From Deltaproteobacteria bacterium (GTDB taxonomy: Bacteria > Desulfobacterota > GWC2-55-46): a DNA stretch of 64,000 bases. The stretch lies in NCBI GenBank assembly GCA_016219115.1, contig JACRCH010000053.1, forward strand, positions 7,322 to 71,321, written 5' to 3'. The notes beneath the pieces are model-generated. The model did not search any database. It had not been told where the DNA came from and saw only the letters and a program-made list of their open reading frames with translations. A program made the translations under genes and the position numbers. Below are positions 19,768-56,988 of the stretch, in pieces. How positions within the stretch are numbered: position 1 is the stretch's first letter; the number at the start of each line of letters is the position of its first letter.

Positions 19768-19869
19768 GAACATCCCCGCAAGCCTTGCTAGCGTGGTATC
19801 CCGAAGGGATATCTGTTTTTATATACGCGGCAAGCCGCGCATAATTCAACCCGAAGGAAATATTAAAAG
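19768..19869 (+). repeat. repeat family 2 copy in the fliI-fliJ spacer
   Basis: GAACATCCCCGCAAGCCTTGCTAGCGTGG..ATCTGTTTTTATATACGCGGCAAGCCGCGC..CCCGAAGGAAATATTAAAAG. It ends 4 nt from the fliI stop codon. Confidence 0.8.
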
Positions 19870-33274: not shown

Positions 33275-33484
33275 CTTTAATTTTTCCTTCGGTTAAATGG
33301 GTGTGCCAGCCGCAATCCCGTCGCTTTAGCGGCGGGTCAAGGCTGGCAAATACAAATGATCTTCCATACCATCAAAATTCTCCGTCATTTATGGCGGAGA
33401 ATTTTAATTAAGCGCGGCTCGCCGCGTACATAAAAACAGATATCCCAACGGAAACCCCGATAGCAAGGCAAAGCGGGGCGGTTC
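33275..33484 (-). repeat. repeat family 2 copy in inverted orientation, carrying a nested family 3 element
   Basis: The reverse complement reads GAACCGCCCCGCTTTGCCTTGCTATCGGGGTTTCCGTTGGGATATCTGTTTTTATGTACGCGGCGAGCCGCGCTTAATTAAA-[insert]-ACCGAAGGAAAAATTAAAG. Confidence 0.8.
33295..33407 (-). repeat. repeat family 3 (two-hairpin element) nested inside family 2
   Basis: The reverse complement is identical over roughly 85 nt to the copy at 56862-56973 (AAAATTCTCCGCCATAAATGACGGAGAATTTTGATGGTATGGAAGATCATTTGTATTTGCCAGCCTTGACCCGCCGC..). Confidence 0.85.
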
Positions 33485-38540: not shown

Positions 38541-38638
38541 TTTGAGCTACCTCTGCGGGGGAGTTTAGACATGAGCATAGCAAAAGAGCGCGTCTTTTGC
38601 CACGACATTACAGATTATATCTTATAAAAGGATTAATT

Positions 38639-38751
38639 GAAGTACCCCGCCGTGAATGCCGGAGTCCTGCCCGGTAAGGGTCCTGTCATCTTTATTTACA
38701 GGCCGCCTTGACCCGCTTATGGAGCGGTGGTGTCGCGGCGTTCACCCGTTC
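38639..38751 (+). repeat. repeat family 3 copy (diverged)
   Basis: GAAGTACCCCGCCGTGAATGCCGGAG..GTCATCTTTATTTACAGGCCGCCTTGACCCGCTTATGGAGCGGTGG.. aligns with the copies at 45742 and 63135. Confidence 0.7.
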
Positions 38752-38805
38752 ACGGGCGACAGCGTCAAAAAAGCGGGTTCTGGAGCGTGGGTGATGAACC
38801 ACCCC

Positions 38806-45611: not shown

Positions 45612-45741
45612 TTTAGTTTTTATCGTGTCCCGCTGACTTAACCCATTAGAAAAACAATAAAACAACCCACATTAAAATATGATTAGAAAGACCGCTTCGC
45701 ACGCATCTTTTCTATCGTAAGACCCCGAAAAGGCTTAAATT

Positions 45742-45845
45742 AAGAACCCCGACATAAATGATGGGGATTCTTCACGGCCAGGTGATCGTCATCTTTATAG
45801 CTCGTCTGAACCCGTTTATAGAGCGGCGGGGTTGCGGCCGGCACT
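45742..45845 (+). repeat. repeat family 3 copy
   Basis: AAGAACCCCGACATAAATGATGGGGATTCTTCACGGCCAGGTGATCGTCATCTTTATAGCTCGTCTGAACCCGTTTATAGAGCGGCGGGG.. Confidence 0.75.
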
Positions 45846-45980
45846 TCTTCAACTCATACAATAATGAAGGGATCTCTTTCATGGCTGAAAAGCAGAGTTG
45901 AAAGATACTGAAGAATATATCACTTGAATTTGATATTTTTCTGTGATTATTGCTACAAATGGAACCACCGGGGTATTAAT

Positions 45981-46080
45981 GAACCACCCCACAAGCCAGG
46001 CTCCGGGGTTTCCGTTGGGGAATCTGTTTTTATATACGCGGCAAGCCGCGCTTAATTAAACCCGAAGGAAATATTAAAAA
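45981..46080 (+). repeat. repeat family 2 copy
   Basis: GAACCACCCCACAAGCCAGGCTCCGGGGTTTCCGTTGGGGAATCTGTTTTTATATACGCGGCAAGCCGCGCTTAATTAAACCCGAAGGAAATATTAAAAA. It is preceded by a collapsed 5' module at 45962-45976. Confidence 0.85.
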
Positions 46081-51682: not shown

Positions 51683-51782
51683 GAACCACCCCGCAAGCCT
51701 TGCTATCGGGATTTCCGTTGGGAAATCTGTTTTATATACGCGGCAAGCCGCGTGGTATTCAACCCGAAGGAAATATTAAAAG
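51683..51782 (+). repeat. repeat family 2 copy
   Basis: GAACCACCCCGCAAGCCTTGCTATCGGGATTTCCGTTGGGAAATCTGTTTTATATACGCGGCAAGCCGCGTGGTATTCAACCCGAAGGAAATATTAAAAG. Confidence 0.85.
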
Positions 51783-56750: not shown

Positions 56751-56861
56751 GTTTCCGGTTCAGCAGGTTGCGTAAAAACGCAGGCCGGATGCAATCCATG
56801 TGGTGATAAGCCGAGCCTTGGAAATGTAATTTTTCCTTGCCAGACAGAGCGACGCTCTGCA

Positions 56862-56973
56862 ATTAAAATTCTCCGCCATAAATGACGGAGAATTTTGATG
56901 GTATGGAAGATCATTTGTATTTGCCAGCCTTGACCCGCCGCTTTAGCGGCGGGTCAAGGCTGGCACACCCATT
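56862..56973 (+). repeat. repeat family 3 copy (best-preserved)
   Basis: Hairpin 1 is AAAATTCTCCG-ccataaatga-CGGAGAATTTT. Hairpin 2 is a perfect 19-bp stem, GCCAGCCTTGACCCGCCGC-ttta-GCGGCGGGTCAAGGCTGGC. Confidence 0.9.
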
Positions 56974-56988
56974 CATTCCGGCTAAATC

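Follow-up and report, generated by a model that had tools for sequence, protein, structure and literature searches.

Family 3, a high-copy mobile repeat with covarying helices and a short fixed target word in a groundwater bacterial genome

The window, i.e., the whole stretch of DNA that was analysed, is 64,000 nucleotides long and corresponds to C2:7322-71321 of the genome under study (G000), a 2.30 Mb draft MAG of 143 contigs. Five copies of a short repeat, Family 3, had been located in the window by the earlier note. All five were matched by iterated nhmmer, which was used to collect the copies of the genome, and by a covariance model used as a second search, with covariance-model E-values of 1e-14 to 1e-26. 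The five copies align across approximately 117 nt with a mean column identity of 72%. The Family 3 copies, the parts of the focal copy, and three empty copies of another repeat, Family 2, are placed in the window as follows.

56862..56975, + strand: focal Family 3 copy, subfamily A, short form (outside Family 2), from ATT through ...CACCCATTCA; boundaries taken from flank logos and empty sites
56865..56896, + strand: hairpin 1 of the focal copy, AAAATTCTCCG / CGGAGAATTTT; TAAA tetraloop closed by C-G and A-T pairs, outside which lies a C.A mismatch
56898..56901, + strand: 5' strand of helix P3, ATGG, directly 3' of hairpin 1; covaries with 56969-56972
56923..56964, + strand: hairpin 2 of the focal copy, perfect 19-bp stem with a TTTA loop; derived fully palindromic variant
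56969..56972, + strand: 3' strand of helix P3, CCAT; ends at the right element boundary
56973..56975, + strand: right-junction bases TCA; flank logo C 97%, A 100%
33293..33410, - strand: Family 3 copy, subfamily A, nested in a Family 2 element at approximately 33275-33484; covariance-model match
38634..38753, + strand: Family 3 copy, subfamily B, 93 bits; the most diverged of the five, with hairpin 1 partly broken
45736..45852, + strand: Family 3 copy, subfamily B; covariance-model match, 107 bits
63130..63245, + strand: Family 3 copy, subfamily B, 115 bits; lies directly against a Family 1 repeat, at its end module ...GGGAATTTTGTG
19768..19869, + strand: empty Family 2 copy, unoccupied target ...GCGCATAATTCAACCCGAAGG... 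(C2, +, 27173)
45981..46080, + strand: empty Family 2 copy, variant target TTAATTAAACCC (C2, +, 53384)
51683..51782, + strand: empty Family 2 copy, target ...GGTATTCAACCC... (C2, +, 59086)

The Family 3 element is approximately 117 nt in length and multicopy, and it is too short for a transposase gene. Its ends are ATTAAAATTC... and ...CACCCATTCA. Terminal inverted repeats are absent from Family 3, and the B copies show only a 5-nt TTGAA/TTCAA complementarity at their extreme ends. The focal copy was matched by the covariance model at 56860-56976 (+) with 66 bits. It folds, as had been described, into hairpin 1 and a perfect 19-bp hairpin 2 (-69 kcal/mol, z = -10.7 against shuffles). The segment CCATAAATGA, previously taken as the conserved loop of hairpin 1, turned out to be mostly stem, i.e., a C.A mismatch and the C-G and A-T pairs which close the TAAA tetraloop. 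The hairpin 1 stem is AAAATTCTCCG/CGGAGAATTTT in subfamily A and GAAGAACCCCG/CGGGG-A-TTCTTC, with a bulged A, in subfamily B. Hairpins 1 and 2 are near-terminal palindromes in direct orientation with a common core, CCCGCC-loop-G(A/G)CGGG. In some lineages the two loops change together, i.e., TAAA in both or TTCG in both (L015). The spacers GGTAAGG, GTCATTTTTAT, and CCTTGACCCGCC are sequence-conserved across genera.

A third helix, P3, was absent from the earlier two-hairpin description, and strong covariation across genera was found there too. P3 is a 4-bp long-range helix in which the spacer after hairpin 1 pairs with the bases preceding the right-end TCA. The empty sites place the right boundary of Family 3 within CCC|A|T|T|CA. 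The TCA bases of the right junction are also present in empty Family 2 sites (TTAATTCAACCC) and in an empty site of the same-genus genome G001, and the CA, at least, is target-derived.

In the whole genome, 160 non-overlapping Family 3 matches were found by iterated nhmmer, i.e., 130 full-length and 30 partial, with six of the partial matches cut by contig ends. The density is approximately one copy per 15-18 kb, and the five repeats of the window are a sample of a high-copy interspersed repeat. Two subfamilies were recognized. Subfamily A comprises 96 copies with approximately 7% mutual divergence and includes the window copies 56862 and 33295, and subfamily B comprises approximately 34 diverged singletons (15-30%) and includes 38639, 45742, and 63135. 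With the covariance model, Family 3 was found in 18 of 25 genomes of the same family, with 1 to approximately 89 scored copies each, and in one of 16 genomes from other families of the same order.

Approximately half of the A copies lie inside Family 2, in the arrangement ATGAACCACCCCGC..GCGGGGTA..CGCGGCAAGCCGCGCTTA, then the Family 3 core, then CCGAAGGAAATATTAAAA. Family 2 without a core reads ...GCGCTTAATTCAACCCGAAGGAAATATTAAAA, and the filled form reads GCGCTTAATT[AAAATTC...CACCCATT]CAACCC. The core is placed at the identical Family 2 nucleotide, GCGCTTAATT^CAACCC (TTAATT^CAACCC), with a 3-nt ATT ambiguity. A Family 2 anchor search of the genome gave 45 filled and 42 empty copies. By counting of the tail motif, 53 Family 2 tails follow a core, and the remaining matches are mostly empty copies. 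The Family 2 host modules are 15.8% diverged, versus 6.8% for the inserted Family 3 cores. Filled (f) and empty (e) hosts are intermixed and form no clade (ff 0.161, ee 0.149, fe 0.155; nearest-neighbour p = 0.066), and the hosts of filled copies vary as much as the Family 2 modules overall. Because the hosts are intermixed and more diverged than the cores, the pattern points to one site that was entered, or precisely vacated, many times independently, rather than to one amplified composite. A 25-codon ATG..TAA frame in the left module of Family 2 was considered and set aside as coincidental, since loop-length variants break the frame.

Outside Family 2, the flanks of 59 sites showed conservation on both sides, i.e., R-A-T-T on the left (92/100/100%) and C-A-(A) on the right (97/100/64%), and were otherwise random. 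The target word is RATT^CA(A), which reads TTGAAY on the reverse strand. It was found at the 59 non-Family-2 sites, at approximately 45-53 Family 2 insertions, and at the empty site of G001. Between species, the insertions at C20:6203 and C83:3771 are missing at the orthologous loci of G001. The orthologous empty site for C20 reads ..ATCAATC.., and the right-hand TCAA therefore belongs to the target. The G001 orthologue of the 33295 locus holds the entire composite of Family 2 and Family 3 in opposite orientation. The search for empty sites in G001 used 24 joined flanks, which were mostly swamped by another repeat and by divergence, and gave three usable loci. At a B-copy locus, compared in order to trace the A/G base before TTCA to the target or to the element, the G001 spacer is completely replaced. 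Family 3 is mobile DNA, polymorphic between species, which has repeatedly inserted at one short word.

By comparison of filled and empty sites, ATT (A, 3 nt) or TT (B, 2 nt) is repeated at both junctions. This repeat could be a coincidence of target and terminal motif, or a short duplication or core. A long target duplication was not found at Family 3 insertions, where the junction repeat has at most 2-3 nt. One explanation of the repeat is a conventional MITE with a DDE transposase that duplicates 2-3 bp of the target (TT or ATT), and the 5-nt TTGAA...TTCAA complementarity between the extreme ends of B copies would agree with it. However, without the putative duplication the ends retain no real inverted terminal repeats (AAAATTCTCC versus GGGTGTGCC), and in the B copies the "duplication" is imperfect, i.e., ATT versus GTT. 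The target word is also fixed, not a length-defined duplication, and no DDE IS copies occur as repeats in the assembly. It is reasonable to consider this explanation highly improbable. Integron attC sites (GTTRRRY) and IS91 (GTTC target) were compared by eye and set aside, as the copies are scattered in either orientation and their junctions are at odds with insertion at G|TT.

The earlier note proposed that hairpin 1 keeps its pairing with changed stem sequence, and this was confirmed copy by copy. RNAalifold gave no structure on a mixed MAFFT alignment of A and B, because the hairpin 1 registers differ between the subfamilies. The hairpins were therefore analysed in single copies, and the covariance-model alignment was used in place of the mixed one. 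Folding of hairpin 1 with its own arms beat folding with swapped arms in all but 10 of 2000 permutations in subfamily B and in all but 2 of 2000 in subfamily A (overall z = -8 for all copies). A column-wise count of 27 B copies gave 85.8% pairing, against 84.8% for shuffles, with double changes numbering 11 against 6.7. Column-wise covariation inside this genome alone is borderline. As for strand asymmetry of G.T versus A.C mismatches, the bias in subfamily A traces to one inherited mismatch, and none was found in B.

Across genomes, 37 Family 3 copies from 15 genomes, related by descent, were aligned by fitting to the structure of the covariance model. In this alignment 90.5% of cells are paired versus 75.9% in shuffles (none of 500 as high), and a further count gave 90.8% versus 76.4% (again none of 500). 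Double changes occur in 23 of 26 pairs, where 10.1 are expected, and in 24 of 29 in the further count. Controls with slid partners gave 31-50% pairing, and 32-48% in the further count. Hairpin 1 showed double changes in 12 of 13 pairs with 89.5% of cells paired, and hairpin 2 is 95% paired in the outer stem and 93% in the inner stem. Between genera the hairpin 1 stems are almost wholly different and still paired, e.g., GACGAGCCCTGTC/GACAGGGCTCGTC and CAAATACCCCG/CGGGGTATTTG. P3 is not part of the structure of the covariance model. It is 84.7% paired with two covarying pairs (AU/UA/CG and CG/UA), and its variants are ATGG/CCAT in A, ACGG/CCGT in B, and TCGG/CCGA and CCGG/CCGG in relatives. Among the paired cells, G.U accounts for approximately 2%, and changes on one side only are rare. 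The covariation across the 15 pooled genomes is decisive, and the three helices of Family 3 have been preserved by compensatory change throughout the bacterial family.

Within subfamily A, the arms of hairpin 2 showed a different kind of variation. In the 96 copies they form discrete multi-base variants which are exactly complementary, and the four combinations of arms are distributed as follows.

GCCA-G-CC / GG-C-TGGC: matched, 27 A copies
GCCA-CT-CC / GG-AG-TGGC: matched, 9 A copies
G / AG: mismatched, 49 A copies exact, 53 with right-arm point variants
CT / C: reciprocal mismatch, 0 A copies

The most prolific variant of subfamily A (49 copies) thus has a mismatched hairpin 2 stem. In 13 of the 96 copies, on both backgrounds and including 56862, the internal loop TTGA/ATTGC of hairpin 2 is changed to paired TTGA/TCAA. 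Hairpin 2 had been described as perfect in the 56862 copy and eroded in the others. However, across genera it is the interrupted form, with the TTGA / ATTGC internal loop, that is conserved and ancestral. The uninterrupted 19 bp are therefore a derived state, and copies with the internal loop did not come about by erosion of a perfect stem. At quasi-palindromes, template switching within a strand yields complementary changes of the indel-plus-substitution type. The exactly complementary arm changes of the young subfamily A look like templated conversion from arm to arm, i.e., a mutational process, and such conversions imply that the hairpins of Family 3 extrude in DNA. Part of the apparent "compensation" is mutation by arm-to-arm templating rather than selection, and compensation can come from mutation alone.

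These results divide the earlier argument for a selected structure. That the maintained helices covary across genera agrees with it, whereas the compensation seen inside the window is not in itself a proof of selection. The statement that passive decay would not produce the pattern cannot be drawn from the copies of the window, since the three stem versions of the window are the two subfamilies and one degraded copy, and the A changes look templated. Templated palindrome "repair" can mimic compensatory evolution, and caution is needed when covariation in a single genome is read as selection. Family 3 is a clean natural example of such repair, as also of helices that covary family-wide and of target choice at a word of 5-7 nt.

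Of the two substrates named for the structure, i.e., an RNA or single-stranded DNA for a HUH transposase, the RNA gene was weighed first. A structured small RNA, e.g., a regulatory sRNA, a leader or terminator module, the omega RNA of TnpB/IscB, or the bridge RNA of IS110, would have its covariation from RNA function, and the strong cross-genus covariation in three helices and the conserved spacers agree with that. However, no Family 3 match was found in Rfam at the gathering threshold or with E up to 10, where only tRNA and noise were recovered. The copies are intergenic, and their orientation relative to neighbouring genes is same/same in 34, opposite/opposite in 34, divergent in 17, and convergent in 14. 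Neither a bias in orientation with respect to genes nor an excess in convergent as compared with divergent spacers was found in this genome, which speaks against a role as terminator, leader, or sRNA linked to transcription units. The low share of G.U pairs and the rare one-sided changes fit DNA hairpins or templated conversion better than typical RNA, and the most prolific variant carries the mismatched hairpin 2 stem. As for omega or bridge RNA, TnpB (PF07282) is absent from the genome and from 17 of 18 Family 3 carriers, and the IS110-type DEDD transposase (PF01548) is absent from the genome. An RNA gene is accordingly very unlikely. The single-stranded-DNA reading fits better, on orientation, G.U content, site specificity, and palindromes, although no HUH transposase matching Family 3 was found.

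The search for a mobilising enzyme covered the genome, its relatives, the genome collection, and metagenomes, and a cognate transposase with Family 3-matching ends was not found in any of them. No IS-sized repeats are present in the assembly. The only tnpA in the genome is a 5'-truncated, catalytically dead IS200-type remnant at C29:25356-25510. A Family 3 copy sits at TGAAT, 10 nt past the stop codon of this remnant, and was considered as a link. The remnant's own RE-like hairpin is on the other side from the Family 3 copy, and the insertion into the dead IS appears incidental. Among relatives, an intact IS200 was found in G017 only (572 bp, four copies). It was rejected as a parent of Family 3, as its end hairpins are unrelated. 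Y1 genes are entirely missing from G001 and G016, the carriers with the highest copy numbers. Pattern scans of species-representative genomes and metagenome contigs gave no cargo-bearing copy of Family 3. Their matches were exclusively complete gene-less copies from related groundwater MAGs.

The Y1 proteins of 179-183 aa which were found in 11 relatives are RAYTs, and they bring in the REP/REPIN-type repeats that RAYTs maintain in enterobacteria and pseudomonads. Family 3 resembles the REP, BIME, and REPIN-RAYT systems of Enterobacteria and Pseudomonas as a high-copy intergenic imperfect palindrome in mosaics of short modules, here BIME-like mosaics with Families 1 and 2, and single-strand HUH chemistry is presumed for both. 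However, no RAYT was found in the genome under study by Pfam scan or tblastn, and the RAYT genes of the relatives are flanked by their own unrelated REPs of GTAG type (GTAGGGTGGGC...GCCCACC). RAYT presence is uncorrelated with the copy number of Family 3: G000, G001, and G016 are richest in copies but lack a RAYT, whereas G004, G006, and G014 encode one but lack the element. The palindromes of Family 3 are also direct and those of REPINs inverted. Maintenance of Family 3 by a RAYT is scarcely probable.

Small hairpin-ended non-autonomous elements of other kinds are closer. PATEs have no ITRs, no target duplication, similar near-terminal palindromes, a targeting word of 4-6 nt, and a longer 5' than 3' spacer; they are often nested in other elements and are mobile even where the IS200-type tnpA genes are pseudogenes (PMC3119063). 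The PATEs of Haloquadratum walsbyi and the PATE-like ISGst elements of Geobacillus stearothermophilus are, as Family 3 is, gene-less and without ITRs, and they cause no real target duplication (PMC3119063; PMC10055086), as may also be the case for Family 3 with its junction repeat of at most 2-3 nt. They share with Family 3 the paired, similar near-terminal palindromes and the short fixed targeting word, the homogeneous bursts beside heterogeneous old copies, the frequent nesting in mobile repeats, and mobility with the resident IS200-type tnpA dead or absent. The differences are that no IS200/IS605 transposon with Family 3-related ends was found anywhere searched, that TnpB and omega RNA are absent from Family 3 carriers, that P3 bridges the whole hairpin 2 domain and does not lie beside the hairpin foot, and that the host of Family 3 is an uncultured Thermodesulfobacteriota-like lineage of groundwater. 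Family 3 is a lineage-specific addition to the known class of small non-autonomous elements with hairpin ends.

The best explanation of Family 3, which we put at about an even chance, is a non-autonomous element of PATE kind whose mobilising enzyme targets TTGAAY. The element would move in single-stranded form, and its folded hairpins would be recognized by a HUH tyrosine transposase of IS200/IS605 (Y1) type that is supplied in trans. The enzyme would cleave beside short motifs set by their pairing to a guide inside the element, with P3 as this pairing. The reverse strand would be read as 5'-TTGAAY | GGGTG..hairpin 2'..CC(A/G)T-hairpin 1'..YAAT | -3', with TTGAAT as the putative target motif of subfamily A and TTGAAC as that of subfamily B. 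Read in this direction, the 5' spacer would be longer than the 3' spacer, as in PATEs, and a one-sided word of 5-6 nt would make a duplication unnecessary. The transposase may have been lost from most carrier genomes, or may never have been assembled in them.

This explanation is favoured because it joins the copy number, the site-specific mobility, the flanks, the covarying helices, and the signs of DNA rather than RNA with the agreement with PATEs and IS605, and because of the dead IS200-type tnpA in the genome and the intact IS200 in G017. IS608 of Helicobacter pylori and ISDra2 of Deinococcus radiodurans likewise have subterminal imperfect palindromes that are recognized on one strand. IS200/IS605 elements insert 3' of a 4-6-nt motif with no duplication, and the word of Family 3, TTGAAY, compares with the ISDra2 target TTGAT. 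The hairpin-to-end spacings are 6-8 nt and 3 nt in Family 3 and, unlike these, 19 and 10 nt in IS608. In IS605-type elements the TAM-TEM logic is that covarying internal guides set the cleavage sites by pairing (PMC10055086), as is here proposed for Family 3.

Several points stand against movement by a HUH transposase. In addition to the lack of a cognate transposase and the spacing unlike that of IS608, P3 pairs left-junction bases with a guide by the distal hairpin, which is non-canonical in comparison with IS608. The replication-strand bias typical of IS200/IS605 elements was not detected in tests of low power on a draft MAG, i.e., 56 versus 62 copies by raw GC skew and, for A copies, 19 versus 31 by GC3 skew decomposition (p = 0.12). 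Conservation on the two sides of the insertion point, together with the ATT/TT repeat, would also suit a core of recombinase type.

The main rival is accordingly a conservative site-specific recombinase, i.e., an IS110/IS1111-like DEDD, tyrosine, or serine enzyme, and the RNA-gene, RAYT, and DDE-MITE explanations are less likely than this one. The crossover would take place in a 2-3-nt core, TT/ATT, common to the target RA-TT-CAA and the circular junction CC(A/G)-TT-(A/G)AA. Such an enzyme would account for conserved bases on both sides of the insertion point, for ATT (A) or TT (B) repeated at the junctions, for the lack of inverted terminal repeats, and for the strongly site-specific insertion into another repeat. 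IS1111-type elements insert site-specifically into REP or attC sites. However, the genome has neither a DEDD transposase nor an IS-sized repeat, and approximately 7 nt of the target are conserved, fewer than recognition of bridge-RNA type would give. Similar palindromes in direct orientation and a helix that ends at the boundary are foreign to IS110 ends, and the longer 5' spacer and one-sided 6-nt word of the reverse strand suit elements of IS605 type. Taken together, a recombinase is unlikely.

A further explanation, also tentative and rather unlikely, retains the guide and replaces the enzyme. Family 3 would be an orphan guide-programmed element in which the 5' strand of P3 (ATGG, ACGG, TCGG, or CCGG) dictates the junction or target word (TGAAT, TGAAC, TGATC, or TGACC), and an undescribed transposase or a co-opted host enzyme would act on the folded single-stranded DNA. 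The enzyme would not be IS200/IS605 TnpA, RAYT, TnpB, or IS110, because complete or near-complete carriers lack all of them. If this is true, the Family 3 elements make a natural series of re-targeted elements across a bacterial family. If a transposase is found, the lineage-specific pairs of guide and target word would be a test set for the retargeting of guide-programmed single-strand transposition, and if none exists, Family 3 elements would be orphan PATE-like elements.

SMR-A of Haloquadratum has approximately 110 bp and no target duplication, and no mobilising enzyme is known for it (PMC3119063). As with Family 3, its insertions strongly favour one position inside other non-autonomous elements (PMC3119063), and SMR-A is thus similar in size and site choice, but has prominent inverted terminal repeats, whereas Family 3 has none. 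The interest of Family 3 is moderate and lies in the covarying helix that abuts the boundary, the specific colonisation of another repeat family, and the apparent orphan status. Families 1, 2, and 3 are arranged hierarchically, with Family 3 as a specific coloniser of one site in Family 2. Family 3 also accounts for the mosaic look of the intergenic DNA in this genome, and the fragmentation of the MAG assembly is largely explained by it, as many contigs stop within Family 3 copies.

Family 2, the interspersed repeat into which Family 3 inserts at one fixed point, was present in roughly 90-110 copies genome-wide, and about half of these were occupied by Family 3. Three unoccupied copies lie in the window:

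19768-19869, Family 2 copy
45981-46080, Family 2 copy
51683-51782, Family 2 copy

The tail module of Family 2, ATTCAACCCGAAGGAAATATTAAAA, was also found fused to the end of Family 1, i.e., …GGGAATTTTGTG|ATTCAACCC…. Therefore, Families 1, 2, and 3 have modules in common and swap them. The same tail was joined directly to hairpin 1, i.e., …GATGG|TATGGAAATATTAAAA, in two shortened copies of Family 3 subfamily A:

G000 C18:24389-24437, A copy reduced to hairpin 1
G000 C38, about 7023, minus strand, A copy reduced to hairpin 1

The two copies look like products of an internal deletion mediated by microhomology (GGAA).

The copies of the source genome (G000) were compared with those of the same-genus genome G001. 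The spacer of G001 contig C94 (L067), orthologous to window 33275-33484, carried a composite of Family 2 and Family 3 that points the other way with respect to the conserved genes on either side. Either the spacer was colonised independently, or the composite was inverted as a whole. Both genomes retained, at an orthologous position, a B-like copy truncated at its 5' end (…GCGTAAGCACCCCTTCACGGTAAGG…):

G000 C83:3939-4021, truncated B-like copy
G001 L079, about 1690-1720, truncated B-like copy

Some subfamily B copies are therefore older than the split of the two species. The search for empty sites of Family 3 insertions in G001 was largely swamped by matches to a different repeat, about 130-150 nt long and also present in many copies, GCATAAGGAGAGCGA…ATTGCG[CA]G[CT]GAGCT…CAATA…CCCCGA…, which occurred in at least 40 places in G001 and was far commoner there than in G000:

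G000 C123:1870-2000, also C97 and C121, 130-150-nt repeat
G001 loci L057-L086, 130-150-nt repeat

No REP-associated tyrosine transposase (RAYT) gene was found in G000. Relatives encoded single-copy RAYTs of 179-183 aa, with the HUH motif LLPDHLHCIW and the tyrosine motif YIHYNPVKHGL, among them these five:

L035 (G012), RAYT gene
L036 (G008), RAYT gene
L039 (G007), RAYT gene
L041 (G006), RAYT gene
L042 (G018), RAYT gene

Because inverted REPs, GTAGGGTGGGC(N3-4)GCCCACC, bracket these genes on both sides, the five loci are classic REPtrons in this taxonomic family.

A remnant of an IS200/IS605-type transposase gene (tnpA), containing …FWARGYFVSTVGGDQTKIRESMKKQ… and encoding Ser where the catalytic Tyr would be, was located outside the window:

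G000 C29:25356-25510, minus strand, 5'-truncated tnpA remnant

A Family 3 copy was inserted 10 nt past its stop codon, and a possible right-end hairpin, CCGCC-TTCAGTT-GGCGG, lies beyond the insert. The relative G017 harbored a very compact IS200 of 572 bp in four copies of 97.6-99.5% identity (L032, L045, L051, and L054), with an ORF of 143 aa (open frame 149 aa). Its left-end hairpin is CACCAGAC-TCCT-GTCTGGTG, and its right-end hairpin, CCGCCGAC-TCCT-GTCGGCGG, is followed by AGGTTCAYTT.
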